Shown here: positions 392-41,353 of the stretch, piece by piece
How the letters are laid out: each line of letters begins with the position of its first letter
How positions within the stretch are numbered: position 1 is the first letter of the stretch
Source: an uncultured Hyphomicrobiales bacterium
Lineage (GTDB): Bacteria > Bacteroidota > Ignavibacteria > Kapaibacteriales > UBA2268
NCBI GenBank assembly: GCA_964581505.1
Contig: CAZOOR010000002.1
Span: 19,700 to 83,699, forward strand
Reading direction: 5' to 3'
DNA: 64,000 nt
Program-made: the position numbers and the translations under genes
Notes under the pieces: model-generated
The model's database searches: none
The model's input: only the letters and a program-made list of their open reading frames with translations
Told to the model about the DNA's origin: nothing

Positions 392-3300
392 TTATTCAGT
401 ATTCTTTACAATTTTATAAAATGACGTTTTAATACCTGAATTGATGTTGATAAAATAAATTCCGTTCGGTTCGGCAGACAGGTCAAAATTCAATTCATCA
501 TTATTTAATTGCGTAATTGTCTTATCCATGATAATACGACCGGTTAAACTTGTAATGACAACGTTGATACCGGTAATTGAATTATTGGAAGAACGCCAGA
601 CTAATCTAAACTGCCCGTTAGTAGGATTAGGAATAATTTTTACTACTTCGTTAACAGCATCATCAACATCACTGGTAAATTCATAAGGTTCGGACATTGC
701 GGTACAGCCCGTTTCATTAGTAATTTTGACTTTATATTTTCCTGATACAGTCGGTTGTAACTCTCTTCCGGTTTCACCTGCAATTTTTTTATCGTCAAGA
801 TACCATTCATAAGATTTTGCTTCCGAAGAAACAAGTTTGTTCCCTACAAGTGTAATAATAGGTTTTTTAGCGGCTGGCTGTGTGGTTATTACCAAATCAT
901 TTGTAGAACGCTTTTTGCAACCGTCCCTTGTCTCACAGATAACCCAATAAGTTCCGGGTTTAGTAACTTTAATACGCTTTGTATCTCCACCATTAGACCA
1001 GTGATAACGCTTATATGAAAAAGTAGAAGCAATTAATGTGGAAGTATCACCCTCACAAATTGGATTATTACCGATAATTTTAATAACAAAAGGAGGTGTT
1101 TTTGTAACAGTAATATCCACAGATTCAGAATTTGCAGAACAGTTCTGTGCATCTGTAACTCTGACAGAATAGCGTCCGCGTTTCTTCACCCATATTGATT
1201 TATTCTTGCTACCTGTGGACCACTCATAAGTTTTATAAAGTCCTTTGCAGGTTAGTTTAACGCTATCACCATCGCAAAAGTCGGTATTACCTTCAATTTC
1301 AATTTCGGGACTTGATAAGTTGCAATTAACTACGGATACCTCCCATAAACCTCTGCCATAAGTACCCGCACGTAGCATTCCGCTCCCTCTGTGAATTTCC
1401 AAAGCATTGATAATAACATTCGGTAAACCGTTATTAAAAGTAATCCATTTACGGTTAGCATTATCTCGAGTGAAAACCCCCGCATCAGTTCCACAATATA
1501 ATCTATTCTGTGAATTTCCCTGTGCAACCAAGCAATTGACCGGTAAATTAGGCAAACCATCAGAAATATTTTCAAATTTTTGACCGTTATAAAACATTAC
1601 TTTACTTCCGGCACTATAACCGGATAAAGTAACCCAATATCTATTTGCAGATTTCGGGTCAACAACTATTGAAGTAACGTATTGACTCATAGTAGCAACA
1701 GATTTCCAGAAGCCTCCTCCCATAGTTGTTTTATAAATTTTATTCGCAAAAGAAAGATATAGGGTGTTAGGATTCTTCTCGGAAATAGTTAATGTCCTTA
1801 TTGTTGTTGGCGGATTTGTCCTTTGAAAATTAGAAATTCTCGTCCAATTCTCACCTTTATCAGTTGATTTCCAAACATTTTCAAGGCCAACATAAATAAT
1901 GTTCGGGTTTGTAGGATGCAGAACATAAGGTGTTACCCAAGAACCTCTTTCCTGTGTATTTTGAGTTCCAATAATTTCTTTAAAATAATTACCTCCGTCA
2001 GTTGACCTGAGTACTCGTCCATAATACAAAGAAACATATACAATTTGTGGATTGGTATAATCAATAATAGTTTTCATGCCATCACCACCGTAGATATTTT
2101 TCCATGTGCTACCATTGTAAATATGGCTTCCGTTATCCTGCGCTCCACCTGAAACAATTTTATTATTCTGACGTGAAGAACTAATTGAATAGAACTGAGT
2201 AATATTCAATCCGTTACTTAAATCAGTCCAAGAAGTTCCAAAATCAGATGACCTGTTCAATCCACCATCTGTACAAGCGTATAGGTTTTTATCTTTATCG
2301 AATATCAGTTGGTGAATATCTGCATGAACCCAGGGAAGGGAGTATCTTCCTGTCCACTCTGCTATCGGACTGAATTTTACGCCGCCATCAGTGGATTTAA
2401 AAATATTAACGGCACCCAGATATACTTCATTCTCATTGTCAGGATTAATGGCAAATGAAAGGTCGTATAAGCCCTGTCCCTCTACACCCAGACCATTTGC
2501 AAGAAAATGAAGATAATTTCGGGAATTAGATTTATCAGCACGCTTTACCCAATTGGTTCCGTCAGTTGTCCGCCATACGGAATGGAAATTGTAATAAGGA
2601 TATGCGCTAGCCATTAGGGCATACATCGTATTCGGTTTCTTTTTATTTGTAGCAAGAACTATTCTGCTAACTCCTGTTTGTTCCAATAATTTCAAAAAAC
2701 TATTGCTGTTTGCGTTATATTTTTCGATGCTCAATTTATTATGTGCATATCTCATAACGCAATAGATGGTTTTTGAATCGTTCGGTTTGAACTTCATATC
2801 ACGGCAGAAAGTAGTAGTAATACGTCCCCAATTAGTGCCACCGTCAGTTGTTTTGAAAATACCTTTATTTGTTGCGGCATATACAAGGTTTGCATTTTGC
2901 GGAGCTATTAAAATTCGATTAACGAGAGCTTTTTCCGGTACTTGAAATGCAAGATTAGTCGGTATCCAGCTATCGCCTGCATCAGTTGATTTTAAAATTC
3001 CTACACTAAACGAGAAGTTTGCACCGAGAAAACCAGCGGCGTCTGCATCACCTGTTCCTGCGTAAACAATATTATTATCCGATTGCGCTACTGCTATATC
3101 CGAAATACCAATTGACATAAGAGCCGATAATGGTAAATTAGCCCAATTAGCACCTCTATCAGTGGATTTCCATATTCCACCTGTGGCAGAACCTGCATAT
3201 ATAACTTTTGGTGAATTTGAAGCAAAAGCAATACAACTAATACGACCAACACCTGCTTTCAATCGAGAGTTATTGGGAGTAGGTTTATTAATTGGTCCTA

Positions 3301-3628
3301 ATGAATGCCACTTTGGTTGGGCAAGCATTTTATCAATATTCTTTTTGTCGCGAGAATAATCAAAGTATTCTTTGTATGCTTCAGCCAAATTCGGAATAGC
3401 ATCTGTTTTCCAAAATCTTGGTTTGATTAACCATTCCATTCGTTTGTATTGTTTAAAGCCGCTTCCTTTATATGGTTCTTTGCCATTCCAATAATCGTTA
3501 AAGCTTTTTTCAACTTCCTTAAAACTAAACTCTTTATCTTGATTAACATTTATTAGCCAATTTTGAGAAAATAAACTTACGCTTCCAAATAAAACGATAA
3601 GCAATAATGATGTAAGCAATTTTTTCAT
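392..3628 (-). CDS. T9SS type A sorting domain protein with BNR/VPS10-like (glycosyl hydrolase-like) beta-propeller and Ig-like repeats
   Basis: Signal peptide; many SxDxGxxW BNR/Asp-box repeats (STDRGANW, STDAGDSW, SSDFGTSW, STDKGENW); Ig-like FCDGDSVKL/YEWSTG modules; C-terminal IIPNPTNG...GIYFINI...KIVK typical of a T9SS CTD. Confidence 0.85.
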   Translation of the reverse strand: MKKLLTSLLLIVLFGSVSLFSQNWLINVNQDKEFSFKEVEKSFNDYWNGKEPYKGSGFKQYKRMEWLIKPRFWKTDAIPNLAEAYKEYFDYSRDKKNIDKMLAQPKWHSLGPINKPTPNNSRLKAGVGRISCIAFASNSPKVIYAGSATGGIWKSTDRGANWANLPLSALMSIGISDIAVAQSDNNIVYAGTGDADAAGFLGANFSFSVGILKSTDAGDSWIPTNLAFQVPEKALVNRILIAPQNANLVYAATNKGIFKTTDGGTNWGRITTTFCRDMKFKPNDSKTIYCVMRYAHNKLSIEKYNANSNSFLKLLEQTGVSRIVLATNKKKPNTMYALMASAYPYYNFHSVWRTTDGTNWVKRADKSNSRNYLHFLANGLGVEGQGLYDLSFAINPDNENEVYLGAVNIFKSTDGGVKFSPIAEWTGRYSLPWVHADIHQLIFDKDKNLYACTDGGLNRSSDFGTSWTDLSNGLNITQFYSISSSRQNNKIVSGGAQDNGSHIYNGSTWKNIYGGDGMKTIIDYTNPQIVYVSLYYGRVLRSTDGGNYFKEIIGTQNTQERGSWVTPYVLHPTNPNIIYVGLENVWKSTDKGENWTRISNFQRTNPPTTIRTLTISEKNPNTLYLSFANKIYKTTMGGGFWKSVATMSQYVTSIVVDPKSANRYWVTLSGYSAGSKVMFYNGQKFENISDGLPNLPVNCLVAQGNSQNRLYCGTDAGVFTRDNANRKWITFNNGLPNVIINALEIHRGSGMLRAGTYGRGLWEVSVVNCNLSSPEIEIEGNTDFCDGDSVKLTCKGLYKTYEWSTGSKNKSIWVKKRGRYSVRVTDAQNCSANSESVDITVTKTPPFVIKIIGNNPICEGDTSTLIASTFSYKRYHWSNGGDTKRIKVTKPGTYWVICETRDGCKKRSTNDLVITTQPAAKKPIITLVGNKLVSSEAKSYEWYLDDKKIAGETGRELQPTVSGKYKVKITNETGCTAMSEPYEFTSDVDDAVNEVVKIIPNPTNGQFRLVWRSSNNSITGINVVITSLTGRIIMDKTITQLNNDELNFDLSAEPNGIYFININSGIKTSFYKIVKNTE

Positions 3629-3856
3629 TTAATATAATATCCTTAAAAAATTTGATAATAGCTTTCAAAAATAAACAATTTTTATCGTTTATCGAAACTT
3701 ATTAGAAATATAAAGCCTATAAATGGTTTAAAATATGCGTATACAAGATAAGATTATTCTCTACAATCTTTTACGACAAATCAGATGATAGTATTTTTCC
3801 GTTTTATTTATAATTTGATATGGCAGGACTATAACAGTAAAGGAGGGATTGCAAAA

Positions 3857-4528
3857 TTAATTTTCCCAACCGTTTTTCCCGATAAGCGGAACAAATTTAA
3901 ACTTATCCAATTGCTGGGAAGAGTAATGCTCTTCATCTTCACGTATAATTACGAACATATCCTGAGCATTTTTTCCGCCTATTGGCAATATCATCTTTCC
4001 ACCAATTTTTAATTGCATAATTAGCTTATTAGGCACATTCGGGGCGGCGGCAGTAATAATAATGGAATCGTAAGGGGCATTTGAAGACCAACCCAGTGAA
4101 CCGTCTCCAAATTTTAAATTAATCGTTGCACCCAATTGCGAGAAAAGAGAACGGCAATGCTCATATAAATTCTGAACTCGTTCTACGGAATAGACAGATG
4201 CACCAAGCAAGTATAACAAAGCGGCTTGGTATCCGCTTCCGGTTCCTATTTCCAGCACTCGTTCACCTTCATTTATATCAAGCAATTCGGTCATATAAGC
4301 GACTGTATATGGTTGGGATATTGTTTGTTTATCTTCTATGGGAAGAGCGGAGTCCTCATACGCACGGTTAATAAAAGTAGGTAGTACAAATAACTCACGC
4401 GGCAGATAGTTCATTGCCGATAGAACATTTTCATTTTTAATACCTTTTTGCCTAAGTGAAGCAATCAGAGCTTCCCTTTGAGTTCGCATTTGATTAAATG
4501 CAAAATTATCAATATTTAGTGTTCTCAT
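3857..4528 (-). CDS. pcm: Protein-L-isoaspartate O-methyltransferase
   Basis: QTISQPYTVA, VLEIGTGSGYQAA SAM-binding motif, APYDSIIITAAAP, FVPLIG C-terminus. Confidence 0.95.
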   Translation of the reverse strand: MRTLNIDNFAFNQMRTQREALIASLRQKGIKNENVLSAMNYLPRELFVLPTFINRAYEDSALPIEDKQTISQPYTVAYMTELLDINEGERVLEIGTGSGYQAALLYLLGASVYSVERVQNLYEHCRSLFSQLGATINLKFGDGSLGWSSNAPYDSIIITAAAPNVPNKLIMQLKIGGKMILPIGGKNAQDMFVIIREDEEHYSSQQLDKFKFVPLIGKNGWEN

Positions 4529-32878: not shown

Positions 32879-32963
32879 ACTTAAAAAGAAAACTTAAATC
32901 TAAGAATTAATTCTTAGTAATTTTGAAAACAATTTTTATTCATAAATAATAAAAGGTATAAAT

Positions 32964-33749
32964 ATGGCTTATGAAACAATACAATTCGAGAAAAAAGAAA
33001 ACTACGTTATTCTTACAATCAATCGTCCCGACAAACTGAATGCTTTAAATTCGCAAGTATTCTTTGATATTTACGATGCAATAACTGCTATTGAGACAGA
33101 CATAGAGATTAAGGCAGTCATATTAACAGGTACGGGCGAGAAAGCATTTGCCGCAGGTGCTGATATTAAAGAACTAAATGCAAGCGATACAGATGCAACA
33201 GGTAAAATGTTTTCGGAACTCGGCTCAAAAGTTATGGCACGTCTCGAACAGCTTCGTATTCCGGTAATTGCGGCTGTAAACGGATTTGCTCTGGGCGGTG
33301 GTTGCGAACTTGCGATGTCCTGCCATTTACGCTTTGCTTCGCCCAATGCGAAATTCGGTCAGCCGGAAGTAAATCTCGGAATCATTCCGGGCTATGGTGG
33401 CACCCAACGTATGCCACGATTAATCGGTAGAGCAAAAACAATTGAATTAATTATTTCCGGCAATATGATTGGTGCGGACGAAGCAAAGATGCTCGGATTA
33501 GTCAATGATGTATTTACTCAGGAAGAACTTATTCCAAAAACCGAAGAATTTGTACGACTTGTTCTGAGTAAAGGTAGTATTGCTGTATCCAACGCAATTG
33601 ATTGTATCCTGCGTTCCGAAGAACTTTCACTTGCCGAGGGTTTGGCTTATGAATCAAAATTATTCGGTCAGACCTGTGCAACTGATGACTTCAAAGAAGG
33701 TACATCGGCATTTCTCGAAAAACGCAAACCTGAATTCAAGGGGAAATAA
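32964..33749 (+). CDS. Enoyl-CoA hydratase/crotonase
   Basis: INRPDKLNALN, AFAAGADI, AVNGFALGGGCELAMSC, FGQPEVNLGIIPGYGGTQR, AFLEKRKPEF. Confidence 0.93.
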   Translation: MAYETIQFEKKENYVILTINRPDKLNALNSQVFFDIYDAITAIETDIEIKAVILTGTGEKAFAAGADIKELNASDTDATGKMFSELGSKVMARLEQLRIPVIAAVNGFALGGGCELAMSCHLRFASPNAKFGQPEVNLGIIPGYGGTQRMPRLIGRAKTIELIISGNMIGADEAKMLGLVNDVFTQEELIPKTEEFVRLVLSKGSIAVSNAIDCILRSEELSLAEGLAYESKLFGQTCATDDFKEGTSAFLEKRKPEFKGK

Positions 33750-33751
33750 TT

Positions 33752-33988
33752 TTGTTAAGAAAGAAATCAAAAGTTTTATACGAACTTGGTCCATACTTAA
33801 ATTTAGGAATGCAATTAGCTGTAACTATTGTTCTAATGGTGTTTCTCGGTAAATGGTTGGATAATAAATACGACACAAGCCCTTGGTTCATTATTTCCTG
33901 TTCACTCTTCGGAGTAATAGCAGGAATGTATAATTTTCTGAAAGTCGCATTGAGTTCTAACAAAGTTAGGAAGAAGAAAAAAAAATGA
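33752..33988 (+). CDS. AtpZ/AtpI family protein
   Basis: Two TM helices, G.WLD.K..TSPW motif; first gene of atp operon. Confidence 0.8.
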   Translation: MLRKKSKVLYELGPYLNLGMQLAVTIVLMVFLGKWLDNKYDTSPWFIISCSLFGVIAGMYNFLKVALSSNKVRKKKKK

Positions 33989-34287
33989 CGCTTTCTATCA
34001 TATTGGGAACATTATTAAGTATAATAAATGCCACCGCAGGATATATAAGCGCACGCATTGCTTTGAAGAAAAATGATGAGTCTTTTAGCAATATTATCTT
34101 CGGCTCAATGATAATTAGATATTTTGTAGTATCAGTTGTTGTTTTCGTATCTCTTAAATATATAAGGATTAACCACTTAGGTTTTGGACTTAGTTTTATG
34201 ATTTCTACCTTTATTTTAATAGTAATAGAAATTTTTTATCTGAATAATCGCTTAAATTTCTTAAATTTGCGGAACAAAAATAATTAA
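33985..34287 (+). CDS. ATP synthase accessory membrane protein (AtpI-like)
   Basis: Hydrophobic multi-TM protein with GSMIIRY between atpZ-like gene and atpB. Confidence 0.65.
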   Translation: MTLSIILGTLLSIINATAGYISARIALKKNDESFSNIIFGSMIIRYFVVSVVVFVSLKYIRINHLGFGLSFMISTFILIVIEIFYLNNRLNFLNLRNKNN

Positions 34288-34300
34288 TAATAGGAATTTT

Positions 34301-35332
34301 ATGTCAGGAAGTATTAACGAATACTTAATAGCAGAAAATAACACAGAACATCAGGAACACGGAACAGCGCAGACGACCGCACACACGGCTCATAGCGACG
34401 GCAATATACCTCCGAGCGAGGTATTCCCAACATTGCTTGGTACTTTGGGCGAACATAGAGAAATGACTTTCTATAATGTGCATATTTGCAACTTGCCTGT
34501 TATTGTTTACGACAAAGATACAGGTCTATTAACTTATAGCTCTGTCGAATCTATGGAAAATGATGGAGTTTATACATTAGACCATCACACACACCAGATT
34601 GTTAAAAGTTCAAATCACGAATCACCTACACTTGATATGTCTATTACATCACTTGTAGTATTTGAATGGCTTGCTATGTTTTTTGTAATTCTTGTATTTT
34701 TAAAATCGGCAAAGAAATACAAAAAGAATTCAAAAGCCGCACCCAAAGGTTTGCAAAATATGATTGAAGCCGGCGTGGTATTTGTACGAGACGATATTGT
34801 CGGGCCTAATATTAACAATAAAGATGTCGTAAACAGATTGTTGCCATTCTTTGTTGTACTGTTTTTCTTCATATTATTTATGAATTTGATAGGTTTAGTA
34901 CCGGGAGGGCATACAGCAACCGGTTCACTTGCTGTAACTGCGGCTTTGGCTATATGCGCCTTTTTTATAATTAACGTTACACAAATTAGAGATGTTGGCA
35001 TTAAGGCATATTTGAAGCATTTACTCGGCGGAGCGCCAATTGCCTTGGCACCTATAATGATACCTATTGAGATATTGTCAATGTTTACAAAACCTTTTGC
35101 ATTGACAGTTCGTCTATTTGCAAATATGACAGCCGGCCACGTTGTGTTACTCTCACTGGTCGGATTAATTTTTTACTTTAAATCATTTGTAGTATCACCC
35201 GTATCGGTAGGATTTTCAATATTTATGTATTTCATAGAAATATTGGTTGCTTTCCTGCAGGCTTATATATTTGTAATACTCACAGCAGTATTTACAGGAT
35301 TAGGTATGAGTCATGACCATACGGAACATTAA
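34301..35332 (+). CDS. atpB: F0F1 ATP synthase subunit a
   Basis: PKGLQNMIE, FMNLIGLVPG, KPFALTVRLFANMTAGH (essential Arg), LQAYIF. Confidence 0.96.
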   Translation: MSGSINEYLIAENNTEHQEHGTAQTTAHTAHSDGNIPPSEVFPTLLGTLGEHREMTFYNVHICNLPVIVYDKDTGLLTYSSVESMENDGVYTLDHHTHQIVKSSNHESPTLDMSITSLVVFEWLAMFFVILVFLKSAKKYKKNSKAAPKGLQNMIEAGVVFVRDDIVGPNINNKDVVNRLLPFFVVLFFFILFMNLIGLVPGGHTATGSLAVTAALAICAFFIINVTQIRDVGIKAYLKHLLGGAPIALAPIMIPIEILSMFTKPFALTVRLFANMTAGHVVLLSLVGLIFYFKSFVVSPVSVGFSIFMYFIEILVAFLQAYIFVILTAVFTGLGMSHDHTEH

Positions 35333-35389: not shown

Positions 35390-35614
35390 ATGGATAATAG
35401 TTTAGCACACTTAGGAGCAGGTCTCGGAGCCGGTATTTCGGTTATCGGTGCAGGCATCGGTATCGGAAGATTGGCGTCAGCCGCTCTTGAAGCCGGCGCA
35501 CGCCAGCCCGAAGCTTCGGGTGATTCAAGAACAACGATGATTATTGCCGCCGCTCTTATTGAGGGCGTGGCATTGTTTTCTTGTGTTATCTGTATTTTAT
35601 TAGCAGTTAAATAG
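35390..35614 (+). CDS. atpE: F0F1 ATP synthase subunit c
   Basis: Glycine zipper GAGLGAG..GAGIGIG, ARQPEA loop, ALIEGV ion-binding Glu (no Q/ES Na+ signature, so likely H+). Confidence 0.96.
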   Translation: MDNSLAHLGAGLGAGISVIGAGIGIGRLASAALEAGARQPEASGDSRTTMIIAAALIEGVALFSCVICILLAVK

Positions 35615-35624
35615 TGCAAACTCG

Positions 35625-35652
35625 GAGAGGGTACTTTCCGAAGTACCCTCTC
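35625..35652 (+). other. Strong intercistronic hairpin after atpE
   Basis: GAGAGGGTACTT-TCCG-AAGTACCCTCTC, perfect 12-bp stem, no long U-tract. Confidence 0.7.
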
Positions 35653-35751: not shown

Positions 35752-36246
35752 ATGGAAAACTTATTAAATATTTCACCGGGGTTGATGATTTGGACTTTGT
35801 TCAACTTCTTTATCGTTCTGTTTATAGTTATTAAATTCGGTGTAAAACCTATTGTTAATGGTTTAAACTCTCGCGAAAACAGTATCAAAGATGCAATTGA
35901 ACATGCAGAGAAAGCAAACTCAGAGGCACAAGCACTTCTCAAAGAAAGTCAGGAAAAACTCAGAAATGCCCAATCGGAAATGAGTGAAATCATTCAGAAG
36001 GGACGAGTTCAGGCTGAAGAAATGCTCAGAAAAGCCGGTGAAGATGCCGATAAAGTGAAAAAACAAAAAGTTGAAGATGCCGTAAAAGAAATTGAGAGAA
36101 GCAAAGATGCCGCAATTCATGAACTGAGAAAAGAAGTTGCTACTCTTGTTGTAGGTGCAACAGAGAAACTCTTAGACGAGACTTTGGACAAAGACAAGCA
36201 TTACAAGCTAATAGAATCTTATATTGAAAAATTACCAAAGAATTAA
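35752..36246 (+). CDS. atpF: F0F1 ATP synthase subunit b
   Basis: PGLMIWTLFNF TM anchor, KFG.KPI...L..RE..I, coiled coil. Confidence 0.95.
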   Translation: MENLLNISPGLMIWTLFNFFIVLFIVIKFGVKPIVNGLNSRENSIKDAIEHAEKANSEAQALLKESQEKLRNAQSEMSEIIQKGRVQAEEMLRKAGEDADKVKKQKVEDAVKEIERSKDAAIHELRKEVATLVVGATEKLLDETLDKDKHYKLIESYIEKLPKN

Positions 36247-36255
36247 TAAATTATT

Positions 36256-36795
36256 ATGACAGAACAAAGAGTATCATACAGATATGCAAAAGCCATAATC
36301 GAAACGGCTGAATCTGAGAAAATCACCGATTTGCTTTACAATGATTTTTTGTATGTTCGGAATATTTGTAATTCTTCGCACGAACTAACAACTATGGTAA
36401 AAAGTCCTGTTGTTCACGATAGGGACAAAGTTAAGATATTCAAAGAATTGTTTGAAAATAAAATCAATTCGGTTACTCTAAATTTCTTAAATTTCCTAAT
36501 CGAAAAAGGCAGAGCCAACTATACACTGGATATTATTGTCCAATACGAAGAGTTGTACAATAAACTCAACAATAAAATTAAAGTTGATATTACTACTGCC
36601 GTTGAGCTGGACGAAGAAGCGAAGAATAACATCGTCAAGAAGATTGCAGAGAACACAGGGCAAACAATTTTATCAAAGTTTATTGTAAGCAAAGATATAG
36701 ACGGTGGGTTACTTGTTAAAATTCACGATTGGGTTTATGATGCAACCCTAAAAAGCCAGCTGAAGAATTTATACAATACTTTAGCACAAAATTGA
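36256..36795 (+). CDS. atpH: F0F1 ATP synthase subunit delta
   Basis: RYAKAI, FLIEKGR, ITTAVEL, DIDGGL..KI.D.VYDATL. Confidence 0.93.
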   Translation: MTEQRVSYRYAKAIIETAESEKITDLLYNDFLYVRNICNSSHELTTMVKSPVVHDRDKVKIFKELFENKINSVTLNFLNFLIEKGRANYTLDIIVQYEELYNKLNNKIKVDITTAVELDEEAKNNIVKKIAENTGQTILSKFIVSKDIDGGLLVKIHDWVYDATLKSQLKNLYNTLAQN

Positions 36796-36837: not shown

Positions 36838-38397
36838 ATGGTAGATGTAAGACCGGAAGAAATTTCCGCAATATTAAGACGCCAGCTCTCAGGATTTGAA
36901 AGCGAAGCGGATATTTATGAAGTAGGTACAGTGCTACAAGTTGGTGACGGTGTGGCTCGTATTTACGGTTTGACAAAAGTTATGGCATCTGAACTTGTCG
37001 AATTCCCAAACAATGTGATGGGAATGGTGCTAAACCTCGAAGAAGACAATGTCGGTGTGATGCTTTTTGGCGATGACAGTTTAGTTAAAGAAGGTGATAC
37101 TGTTCGCCGAACAGGTAAGGTTGCCTCTGTTCCCATTGGTAATGGACTTTTGGGTAGAGTTGTCAATGCTTTGGGACAACCTATTGATGCTAAGGGTCCC
37201 CTAAATATTGATACTTATTATCCGATTGAAAGAAAAGCACCGGGCGTTATAGCACGCCAACCTGTGAAAGAACCGTTGCAAACCGGTCTGAAAGTAATTG
37301 ATGCTTTGATTCCTATTGGACGCGGGCAGAGAGAATTAATAATTGGCGACCGCCAAACAGGGAAAACAGCTATTGCATTAGATGCTATTATTAATCAAAA
37401 ATATACACATACAGAAGAAGCCAAAAAGAGCGGCGTAAAGCCTGTTTATTGTATTTATGTAGCTATCGGGCAAAAAGGCTCGACTGTTGCTAACGTGGTT
37501 TCTTATCTTAAAGAATACGGAGCATTAGATTATACGATTATCGTTGCCGCAAATGCTTCGGACCCTGCACCTATGCAGTATATTGCACCTTATGCAGGTT
37601 GCTCAATGGGCGAATTTTTCAGGGATAACGGAAAGGATGCACTTGTTATTTATGATGATTTATCAAAACAAGCGGCGGCTTACCGTCAGGTATCCTTATT
37701 GCTCCGCCGTCCTCCCGGACGCGAGGCATATCCCGGTGATGTTTTCTATTTACATTCAAGATTGCTTGAAAGAGCCGCTAAATTTTCTGATGAAAATGGC
37801 GGTGGTACACTTACGGCTCTACCTGTCATTGAGACACAGGCAGGAGACGTTGCGGCATATATTCCTACCAATGTAATTTCAATTACTGACGGTCAGATAT
37901 ATCTTGAACCCAACTTATTCAATGCAGGTGTAAGACCGGCTATGAATGTAGGTATTTCTGTTTCACGTGTTGGTGGTAATGCACAGATTAAAGCTATGAA
38001 GAAAGTAGCAGGTCCATTGAAACTCGAACTTGCTCAATATCGCGAATTAGAGGCATTTGCTAAATTCGGCTCCGACTTGGATAAAGCCACTCAACAGCAA
38101 TTAAGACGTGGTGCTATATTGACCGAAATTCTAAAGCAAAGACAGTTTGTTCCAATTCAGGTTAATAAGCAAATTGCTTTAATTTGGACTGCAACTAACG
38201 GTTATCTTGATGAATTACCGGTTGAAGTGCTTGATAAATTTGAAACGGATTTCTTTGAATATCTTGAGAATAATGAAAATGCATTATTGGAATTGATTTC
38301 GGAGAAGAAAGAATTAGTTGATGAAGTTGTCAGTGCCTTGAAAAAAGCCGCCGATAATTTTGTCGGAATATTTAAAAGTTCAAATAATATAGAATAA
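36838..38397 (+). CDS. atpA: F0F1 ATP synthase subunit alpha
   Basis: [61 protein letters not shown]. Confidence 0.99.
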
Positions 38398-39366
38398 ATG
38401 ATAATATTAACCGGCGGTGCAGGCTTTATCGGCTCTTGTTTCCTGAAAACATTGAACAGTAATGGTATTTACGATATCATTGTTGTAGATAGATTGGGAA
38501 ATGGGGACAAGTGGAAAAATATTGTCGGTAAACGATTTGCCGGATATTATCATAAAAACGAGTTCTTTGATGTTCTATTCGATGAGAAAAAAATAGCTAG
38601 GAATATTGATGCTATTATTCACCTCGGTGCTTGCTCTTCAACGACTGAATCCGATGTTGATTATATTATGAGTAATAATTTGAATTATAGTATCAAGTTA
38701 GCTACTTATGCCGCAGAGCATAGTATAAAATTTATTTATGCAAGTTCGGCGGCTACTTATGGAGATGGCTCAAAAGGTTATTCCGATTATTCCATTGACG
38801 ATTTGCAACCTCTCAATCCTTATGGATTGTCCAAACATTTATTTGATAGATGGGTTGTCGATAATGAACTTGACACAGAGTTTATCGGTGTTAAATTTTT
38901 CAATGTGTTTGGTCCCAATGAATATCACAAAGATGATATGTCATCAATGATATTCAAATCGTTCAATCAGATAAAAAACACAGGCAAGGTCAAGCTATTC
39001 AAATCAAATAGTCCCGACTACAATGATGGCGAACAGAAGCGTGATTTTGTCTATGTGAAGGACGCCACTAATGTTCTGTGGAAAATGCTTGCTAACAAAA
39101 CCGAAGCCGGTATATATAACCTTGGAACAGGGAAAGCACGCACTTGGAATGACCTTGTGAATGCAGTCTTCAATGCAATTGGCAGAGAAACAAATATCGA
39201 ATTTATCGATATGCCGAAAATTCTCGAAGGGAAATATCAGAACTTTACAGAAGCTGACATCAATAAACTCACTAATTCTCAATACGCAATTGAGTTCACC
39301 GAGCTTGAAGATGCAGTAGAAGATTATATAAAAAATTACTTGAATAAGAGTTTTAAGAACATATAG
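38398..39366 (+). CDS. hldD: ADP-L-glycero-D-manno-heptose-6-epimerase
   Basis: TGGAGFIG, HLGACSSTTE, YASSAATYG, PLNPYGLSK (YxxxK), FNVFGPNEYHK, RDFVYVKD, YQNFTEAD: classic RfaD/HldD. Confidence 0.92.
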   Translation: MIILTGGAGFIGSCFLKTLNSNGIYDIIVVDRLGNGDKWKNIVGKRFAGYYHKNEFFDVLFDEKKIARNIDAIIHLGACSSTTESDVDYIMSNNLNYSIKLATYAAEHSIKFIYASSAATYGDGSKGYSDYSIDDLQPLNPYGLSKHLFDRWVVDNELDTEFIGVKFFNVFGPNEYHKDDMSSMIFKSFNQIKNTGKVKLFKSNSPDYNDGEQKRDFVYVKDATNVLWKMLANKTEAGIYNLGTGKARTWNDLVNAVFNAIGRETNIEFIDMPKILEGKYQNFTEADINKLTNSQYAIEFTELEDAVEDYIKNYLNKSFKNI

Positions 39367-39390
39367 TTATTAAATCAGGAAATACTTTAA

Positions 39391-40272
39391 ATGGCAACAT
39401 TAAGAGACATAAGACGTAGAATCACGGCGGTAAACAGTACTGCAAAAATTACGCAAGCTATGAAAATGGTATCAACGGCAAAATTGAAAAGAGCTCAGGA
39501 CGCTATTATATCCGCTCGTCCTTTTGCCGCAAAACTTGGCGATATTCTCACAAATCTCGTCTCGGAAATTGGCGATACATATTATCATCCTCTCCTTGAG
39601 AACAGAAAAGAGGTTAGGAATATTGCTGTCATTCTCATCGCCGGCAATCGCGGACTTTGCGGTAGTTTCAATACGAATATTTTCCGCCACACAAACCAAT
39701 ATATAAATGATGAAATTAAAAAAGAATATCCGAATGCGAACATTCATCTCTTCCCTATCGGTAAGCGTGCTTGTTCCTCTTTTAAAAATCCCGATATTAG
39801 TTCTACAAACAAATACCCGAATTTGTTAACAGAACTTAACTTTGCAAATGCAAAAGACGTTGTTGATACTGTTTCTGACGGCTTTGTAAACGGACAATAC
39901 GACAAAGTGGTTGTTAGCTACAATATGTTCAAAAATTTACTTGTTCAGATTCCTTCTATTGTTACATTGCTACCTATTGCTCCTACAAATGAAGAGGAAA
40001 ATAATACAAAATTCAATCTTGATTATATTTTTGAACCAACACAAAAAGAAATACTTGATGATTTACTTCCGCGTCATCTTGATATTCAGTTTTGGAGAAC
40101 CGTATTAGAATCTAATGCCGCAGAGAATGCCGCAAGAAGAATGGCTATGGAAAATGCAACCAAGAATGCAAAGGAACTTTCGGAATATCTCGAAATGGTA
40201 TTCAACAAAGAACGTCAAGCGGCAATCACTACCGAAATGCTGGACATTGTCGGTGGTTCCAACGCTTTATAG
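39391..40272 (+). CDS. atpG: F0F1 ATP synthase subunit gamma
   Basis: KITQAMKMVSTAK, RGLCGSFN, AARRMAMENATKNA, RQAAITTEMLDIVGG. Confidence 0.97.
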   Translation: MATLRDIRRRITAVNSTAKITQAMKMVSTAKLKRAQDAIISARPFAAKLGDILTNLVSEIGDTYYHPLLENRKEVRNIAVILIAGNRGLCGSFNTNIFRHTNQYINDEIKKEYPNANIHLFPIGKRACSSFKNPDISSTNKYPNLLTELNFANAKDVVDTVSDGFVNGQYDKVVVSYNMFKNLLVQIPSIVTLLPIAPTNEEENNTKFNLDYIFEPTQKEILDDLLPRHLDIQFWRTVLESNAAENAARRMAMENATKNAKELSEYLEMVFNKERQAAITTEMLDIVGGSNAL

Positions 40273-40290
40273 TGATTTATTCTAACTATC

Positions 40291-40327
40291 AAAAGGACTA
40301 CTGTTTATCGGTAGTCCTTTTTCTTTT
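40291..40327 (+). terminator. Terminator closing the atp operon
   Basis: AAAAGGACTAC/GTAGTCCTTTT stem followed by T-run. Confidence 0.8.
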
Positions 40328-40429: not shown

Positions 40430-41353
40430 ATGAAATTTATCTTTATCATATTATTGTTTTGCTACACTCCCTATCGCTTTCTGAATGCACAGTGCGACTG
40501 TACGGGTAATAGTGCGGAAATCGCTCTTTCCAATCTTAATGAGATTTATCATAATGATTCGCTAAGATATAATAATTTTTATATTAATTTACTATATAAA
40601 TACACCTATGCCGATTCTTATTTTTTAAGAGATGTCAATATCGGCAGAGGAGCAATAAAAAGCATAGCCGCACATTTCTTAGACTTACGACTTAGCTACA
40701 AATATAATTTTCGTTGGATATTTGACATAGAACTCGGATACTTTATTAACAAACGACAAACGGAAAATCTGAAAAACCAATCATTTAATGCGTCCGGTAT
40801 AAGCGATTTATCAATTCTCGGACGATATATATTATGGAAAGATATTGCAAACAATTTTGAAATAAGCGGTGGTGGCGGTATTAAAGTTCCATTTGCTCAC
40901 GAGGAAGCTACTATTCCTCAAAATATTCAACCCTCTACCGGCGCTTATGCCATATTGGCAAATATACTTGTAAAAAAATATTTTCCGGATTGGAATTTAG
41001 GACTAATTGCCGGCAATCGTACCGACTACAACTTCGAGAATAAATGGAGATATAGATATGGTATATCAACAGTTTCATCAATAATTCTACTATATAACGC
41101 AGGCGAAACTATAAATATAGGGACTGAATTACGCGGTGATTTCAGAGGAAAAGATTATAACAAGGGTAAAAAAATATGCGGCTCAGGATTTATTGCTTTA
41201 TCCATAAGCCCCATTTTGCGAATTAATACAGGTAGATTTATTATAGGTTCGTTCTTTAATTATCCATTTTACCAATTCTATTTCGGAAAACAAATTGCAA
41301 ATAAATTTTCGTTTGGTATGAGTATTTCATACGGAACCAAATTATTTGACTAA
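40430..41353 (+). CDS. Putative outer-membrane beta-barrel protein (transporter/MetA-pathway-like family)
   Basis: Signal peptide then QCDC; alternating aromatic strands; SGISDLSILGRY, GGGIKVPF, QPSTGAY; C-terminal ...SYGTKLFD. Confidence 0.55.
   Translation: MKFIFIILLFCYTPYRFLNAQCDCTGNSAEIALSNLNEIYHNDSLRYNNFYINLLYKYTYADSYFLRDVNIGRGAIKSIAAHFLDLRLSYKYNFRWIFDIELGYFINKRQTENLKNQSFNASGISDLSILGRYILWKDIANNFEISGGGGIKVPFAHEEATIPQNIQPSTGAYAILANILVKKYFPDWNLGLIAGNRTDYNFENKWRYRYGISTVSSIILLYNAGETINIGTELRGDFRGKDYNKGKKICGSGFIALSISPILRINTGRFIIGSFFNYPFYQFYFGKQIANKFSFGMSISYGTKLFD

Follow-up and report, generated by a model that had tools for sequence, protein, structure and literature searches.

An ADP-heptose epimerase gene embedded between atpA and atpG across the Kapabacteria order, and independently in a second phylum

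The gene hldD encodes ADP-L-glycero-D-manno-heptose 6-epimerase, and in E. coli it leads the hldD-waaF-waaC operon for the core of the lipopolysaccharide (LPS). The delta-alpha-gamma block of the ATP synthase operon (atpH-atpA-atpG) is among the most stable gene orders in bacteria. In Bacteroidota and Chlorobi the atp locus is split between the gamma and beta genes (PMC4154653), and intervening genes within the delta-alpha-gamma block were uncommon in that survey, which is older than the genomes considered here. Here we describe a stretch of 64,000 nt from contig CAZOOR010000002.1 (assembly GCA_964581505.1; hereafter the window, meaning the whole stretch analysed), in which a complete hldD stands between atpA and atpG. 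Our literature search found no paper that describes this arrangement or ties hldD to the atpA/atpG gene order; the locus is a real, lineage-wide and apparently unpublished variant of a very conserved operon.

The embedded gene and its distribution

In the window, the TAA of atpA directly abuts the ATG of hldD (gap 0), and 24 nt separate the hldD stop from the atpG start; the list of open reading frames (ORFs) and the raw sequence agree on both gaps, which had been given in an earlier note on this DNA. That note had also placed the only terminator after atpG, and a consensus scan indeed finds, on the plus strand, a single strong terminator-like hairpin, at the end of the gene string (Table 1). 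The same scan detected no convincing terminator near or within hldD, its other matches being the hairpin that follows atpE and a weak 6-pair site within atpA at 37599. Neither junction leaves room for a terminator, which bears out the view that hldD lies within the atp gene string, and hldD and the atp genes share one strand, have short gaps and no terminator between them, as expected of a single operon. Since atpD of this genome is on a separate contig (C49), the locus belongs to the split atp type known from Bacteroidota and Chlorobi.

The arrangement was followed through the order in two samples. Among 29 hldD loci from relatives of the same order, 28, covering the family of the window and ten other families, carry atpA-hldD-atpG, and in the remaining one the contig stops before atpA. 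Gene coordinates were then compared in 141 genomes of the Kapabacteria/Kapaibacterium order, 135 of which have both hldD and atpG, and hldD lies 5' of atpG on one contig in 131 of these 135. It is less than 250 nt upstream and on the same strand in 122 genomes, and 440-1380 nt away in nine, all of one family (f8); the pair is split at a contig end in three, and a single genome (G002) shows a true rearrangement. The records with this layout include a metagenome-assembled genome (MAG) of Candidatus Kapaibacterium and MAGs labelled Ignavibacteria or Bacteroidota, which marks the order as the Kapabacteria group. More than 120 relatives, each assembled independently, share the layout, and this excludes the misassembly at one or other junction that the earlier note had raised as a concern. 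At the atpA-hldD junction, 25 of 38 loci have no more than 6 nt between stop and start, ATGA and TAATG overlaps included, and the spacer between hldD and atpG is mostly 9-70 nt.

We note that one MAG labelled 'uncultured Hyphomicrobiales' (locus L065, CAYXFU010000008.1) has a Kapabacteria-type atpH-atpA-hldD-atpG locus, whose HldD is identical to that of locus L031 (G007), from the family of the window; its label, or the binning of this contig, looks wrong.

Outside the order the linkage disappears. None of 26 class-level loci has an atp flank at hldD, 74 of the 80 best-scoring loci from species genomes likewise lack one (Melioribacter, Ignavibacteriales, Chlorobi and Desulfobacterota included), and no hldD-atpG adjacency occurs in a phylum sample of 201 genomes, among those listed with both coordinates. 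In 30 of 30 outgroup loci of the same phylum, atpA is immediately 5' of atpG. The ancestral order is therefore atpA next to atpG, and hldD is an insertion into this conserved pair, as had been proposed; it is no peculiarity of this genome, however, and the synteny comparison reveals an ancient trait that is found order-wide and is absent from the outgroups sampled. The accompanying statement that LPS or ADP-heptose clusters are the normal place of hldD fails for the sister lineages, in three loci of which hldD is a solo gene: it is flanked by metH and a NUDIX gene in Melioribacter and Ignavibacteriales, and by unrelated GGDEF, ferritin and rubrerythrin genes in Prosthecochloris (Chlorobi).

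Identity, descent and recurrence

The HldD of the window, with 390.1 bits against TIGR02197 (cut-off 274.6; 389.6 bits in a six-frame search of the genome), is the sole copy above the family cut-off in a genome that is 99% complete, and its alignment with E. coli HldD (1EQ2; E = 4e-65) is full-length. The GxxGxxG motif and the equivalents of S116, Y140, K144 and K178 are all present, and these positions are invariant in 37/37 embedded and 99/99 non-embedded homologues. The motif is the N-terminal, NADP-binding Rossmann motif, and Ser116, Tyr140, Lys144 and Lys178 (E. coli numbering) are the catalytic residues. Judged by its sequence, hldD of the window codes for an ordinary ADP-heptose 6-epimerase. 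When the 37 embedded and the 99 non-embedded proteins are aligned, no column separates the two sets. Neofunctionalisation of the embedded protein was considered and is ruled out, as there are no clade-specific columns and the catalytic residues are all retained.

The other heptose genes named in the earlier note are scattered over the genome. Contig C38 carries hldE, with domain I at 343 bits, slightly below the cut-off of 345, and domain II at 221 bits, above its own; gmhA is on C44 (197 bits, below the cut-off of 209) and a gmhB-like gene on C85 (110 bits, below cut-off), while GT9-type heptosyltransferase-like genes occur on several contigs (125 bits, below cut-off). From these matches, the presence of the remaining ADP-heptose pathway on dispersed contigs is probable, not proven.

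In the HldD tree, the embedded Kapabacteria proteins form one clade with 99% support in the Shimodaira-Hasegawa-like approximate likelihood-ratio test (SH-aLRT), and the AtpG proteins of the order likewise group in a single clade, with 100% support. The ratio of nonsynonymous to synonymous substitution rates (dN/dS), taken over the less saturated pairs, is 0.06-0.10 for hldD and 0.03-0.11 for atpG; by this measure, the embedded hldD is under purifying selection. The clades and these ratios together fit a single old insertion, after which the gene descended vertically and was kept under purifying selection.

A second case was found in another phylum. We searched a metagenome collection with a DNA pattern that joins the HldD motif YQxxTxA to the AtpG motif ITxAMxMV at short distance, and that had been validated beforehand on the Kapabacteria loci. 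The search returned 70 loci, about 26 of the Kapabacteria type and about 39 of a second type, in which a gene for an HldD-family protein of 301-310 aa lies in the order atpA-[HldD-family]-atpG-atpD-atpC and the gap at both junctions is -4 to 12 nt. These proteins are 29-37% identical to the HldD of the window; against TIGR02197, two of their subgroups score above the cut-off (315 and 321 bits) and the third below it (257 bits). Identical proteins are found in NCBI assemblies GCA_001799645.1 and GCA_001799975.1, and in a sample of 41 genomes around the latter the insert is present in 13 of 30 atpG loci, the other 17 having atpA next to atpG. Some members without the insert carry a canonical HldD elsewhere.

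The two cases are separate in both trees. In the HldD tree the second embedded group is placed on the far side of the E. coli protein, well away from the Kapabacteria clade, and the AtpG proteins of the two host lineages form separate clades, each at 100%; most insert-bearing genomes of the second phylum make up one 98% clade in the AtpG tree, with a small separate group beside it. A distant HldD lineage in the same slot of a second phylum means that there were at least two independent captures, and this recurrence suggests something other than chance in the site or in the pairing. In the second phylum a heptose adenylyltransferase is encoded both in genomes with an embedded HldD and in genomes without any HldD, so that its co-occurrence does not discriminate. 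Seven genomes of that phylum (L280-L309; G431-G471) have a very divergent AtpG (branch length 2.6) with atpA directly upstream, which may represent a different F-type or an N-type ATPase lineage.

Expression and competing explanations

We consider it likely that a single-copy, ordinary hldD came to lie between the formerly adjacent atpA and atpG in the ancestor shared by all Kapabacteria, that it has since descended vertically, that it is carried on the atp mRNA and that it has been retained because it is needed. The message would most likely run ech?-atpZ-I-B-E-F-H-A-hldD-G and end at the terminal hairpin. Ribosomes that finish atpA would probably go on to translate hldD, since stop and start abut or overlap, and such coupling would tie the output of the enzyme to that of the alpha subunit, which is highly expressed and growth-coupled; atpG would retain an initiation region of its own, and hldD would probably have no conserved promoter. 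That hldD stays in its slot because it is needed is suggested by the purifying selection and by the location of the rest of the pathway elsewhere in the genome. The shared transcript, the translational coupling and the cause of retention are what we infer from the sequence, and the tie between ADP-heptose synthesis and atp expression that the earlier note had proposed would be reasonable on this view. The layout implies no new mechanism or enzyme. The best-supported reading is thus that of an old passenger gene locked into an essential, highly expressed operon, with which it would be co-expressed.

Several observations weigh against this reading. In some relatives one junction or both are 140-300 nt wide and could hold signals. 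A TAnnTTTG box (TAATTTTG) within the 3'-terminal part of atpA, 43 nt from the hldD start codon, lies in the same range of distances as the boxes before ech and before a 307-aa ORF (orf307) past the terminator, so that some independent transcription is possible. The linkage of hldD to the atp genes is not obligatory, as it has been dissolved in G002, a member of the family of the window (L154, L155): there hldD lies just 3' of uvrB, and atpG leads an atpG-atpD-atpC cluster that is divergent from a gene for a LuxR-type response regulator. The AtpG of G002 is long-branched yet falls within the AtpG clade of the order, and the rearrangement is therefore secondary. Finally, the HldD phylogeny called for in the earlier note yields a single embedded clade without a clear sister group; it mixes phyla and departs from the species tree, so that the Kapabacteria HldD may be native or acquired.

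What speaks for a recent event, be it an insertion, a horizontal transfer specific to this genome or an assembly chimera of an LPS gene with the atp operon, is the oddity of the gene order alone. The same order is present in the independent assemblies of 11 families, the identity of the embedded HldD proteins falls to 50% with saturated dS, GC content and GC at third codon positions (GC3) of hldD match those of the neighbouring atp genes, and no composition anomaly was found, nor any repeat or insertion scar at the atpA-hldD and hldD-atpG junctions. Nor would these assemblies all share one reference-guided artefact, being de novo metagenome bins that stem from different studies. A recent insertion or transfer is ruled out by distribution, composition and the lack of junction repeats, and the probability left to this whole set of explanations is negligible.

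A different possibility is that the box in atpA acts as an internal promoter for hldD, and perhaps atpG, and unties their expression from the upstream atp genes. The E. coli atp operon has internal promoters, and the boxes of the window that precede ech and orf307, 34-54 nt from the start codons, lie in true intergenic DNA. Moreover, the two-part motif TTTG-N17-23-TAnnTTTG is enriched in the window (13 occurrences against 5.3 expected, a number that none of 100 shuffles reached), which suggests that the lineage uses a Bacteroidota-type two-part promoter. However, a box within 120 nt 5' of hldD is present in 4 of 36 related loci, where 2.3 are expected, and a conserved internal promoter is unsupported by these counts. 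Seven boxes lie on the sense strand inside genes of the 7.3-kb string, or about one per kb, so that a box close to a start codon can be explained by chance. That hldD starts right where atpA stops is a sign of translational coupling, and because no terminator precedes hldD, even an internal promoter could not stop read-through from upstream. We regard uncoupled expression of hldD as improbable, and an autonomous promoter as the main source of its mRNA as possible but unlikely.

The placement may also have been selected, in that it is beneficial to express HldD jointly with ATP synthase, or for HldD to act directly with the alpha and gamma subunits of F1, whence the convergence of two unrelated phyla. 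Two HldD lineages at the same junction of two separate atp-operon lineages argue for it, as do the persistence of the layout over deep divergence with tight junctions and the rarity of inserts in the delta-alpha-gamma block (PMC4154653). Against it stand the embedded HldD proteins, which lack clade-specific changes, and the additional genes of family f8. In four loci of this family (L160 (G031) 2670-3907; L161, L162 and L156), extra DNA lies between hldD and atpG, or in G177 from hldD to the contig end, and encodes RidA/L-PSP in 4/4, a YCII-domain protein in 3/4 and a DUF559 endonuclease-like protein in 1/4; the hldD-atpG junction seems to collect passenger genes there, and such unrelated additions fit a permissive junction better than a specific partnership. 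The search in the metagenome collection was aimed at hldD-atpG pairs, so that other inserts went uncounted and the result carries an ascertainment bias. This targeting, the f8 passengers and the dissolved linkage in G002 make a functional link between HldD and ATP synthase a low-probability one. We consider a convergent, selected capture unlikely, whether it would fix the proportion of epimerase to ATP synthase by coupling to alpha or serve an interplay between HldD and F1; were it true, it would constitute a previously unnoticed link between the supply of envelope sugars and the energy machinery. What the recurrence suggests is an atpA|atpG junction that is unusually tolerant and useful for hldD, or a mild advantage of co-expression.

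The order-wide embedding of a housekeeping LPS-sugar gene in the atp block provides a clean synapomorphy and a lineage marker for Kapabacteria, as well as a natural case study of a passenger gene locked into an essential operon. That the same slot was taken by the same gene family in two phyla poses the question of a permissive junction versus a useful co-expression.

The gene string and its relation to known systems

The features of the string are collected in Table 1. Two nucleotides upstream of atpZ lies ech, with which the transcription unit possibly begins and which may be a further passenger of the atp genes, at their 5' side. The box upstream of ech is a candidate promoter for the entire gene string. 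The hairpin in the 137-nt spacer between atpE and atpF may act as an mRNA stabiliser or as an attenuator favouring output of the c subunit. Past the terminator, orf307 (40430-41353) matches no Pfam or NCBIfam model, and its product is hydrophobic at the N-terminus (MKFIFIILLF...); it is preceded by two TAnnTTTG boxes, at distances of 34 and 54 nt.

Table 1. Features of the gene string around hldD, in window coordinates
Feature	Coordinates	Strand	Evidence or remark
TAnnTTTG (Bacteroidota-type -7 box), TAATTTTG	32918..32925	+	46 nt 5' of ech ATG; candidate promoter
ech, enoyl-CoA hydratase (crotonase) gene	32964..33749	+	PF00378, 222.8 bits
atpZ-type small membrane protein gene (ATPase_gene1)	33752..33988	+	PF09527, 69.5 bits
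atpI-like gene	33985..34287	+	PF03899, 26.2 bits (cut-off 25.1)
atpB (F0 subunit a)	34301..35332	+	Profile search
atpE (F0 subunit c)	35390..35614	+	Profile search
Strong 12-bp hairpin directly 3' of atpE	35625..35652	+	Consensus scan; within the atpE-atpF spacer
atpF (F0 subunit b)	35752..36246	+	Profile search
atpH (F1 delta)	36256..36795	+	Profile search
atpA (F1 alpha)	36838..38397	+	TIGR00962, 805 bits; ends in TAA
TAnnTTTG box, TAATTTTG, in atpA 3' end	38355..38362	+	Possible weak internal promoter
hldD (ADP-L-glycero-D-manno-heptose 6-epimerase), 322 aa	38398..39366	+	TIGR02197
atpG (F1 gamma)	39391..40272	+	TIGR01146, 292 bits
Intrinsic-terminator-like 13-bp hairpin, then T-run	40291..40321	+	Consensus scan; end of gene string

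The locus can be set beside three known or newly found arrangements. Its HldD belongs to the same family as the E. coli protein (RfaD/GmhD/HtrM; 1EQ2, 2X6T; also 4EJ0, 3SXP), with conserved motif and residues; unlike in E. coli, the gene is flanked by atpA and atpG, with the remaining heptose genes on different contigs. The atp genes follow the split F-type locus of Bacteroidota and Chlorobi (atpIBEFHAG, with atpDC elsewhere), with the same order of Z, I, a, c, b, delta, alpha and gamma and a terminator at the end, but the alpha-gamma pair of the window is interrupted by a non-ATPase gene. The operons of the second phylum are similar in that an HldD-family gene occupies exactly the same slot, with tight junctions and conservation across a sub-clade, and they differ from the window in their HldD lineage and in an atp operon that is not split; their junctions are tight on both sides, whereas that of Kapabacteria is tight mainly on the side of atpA.

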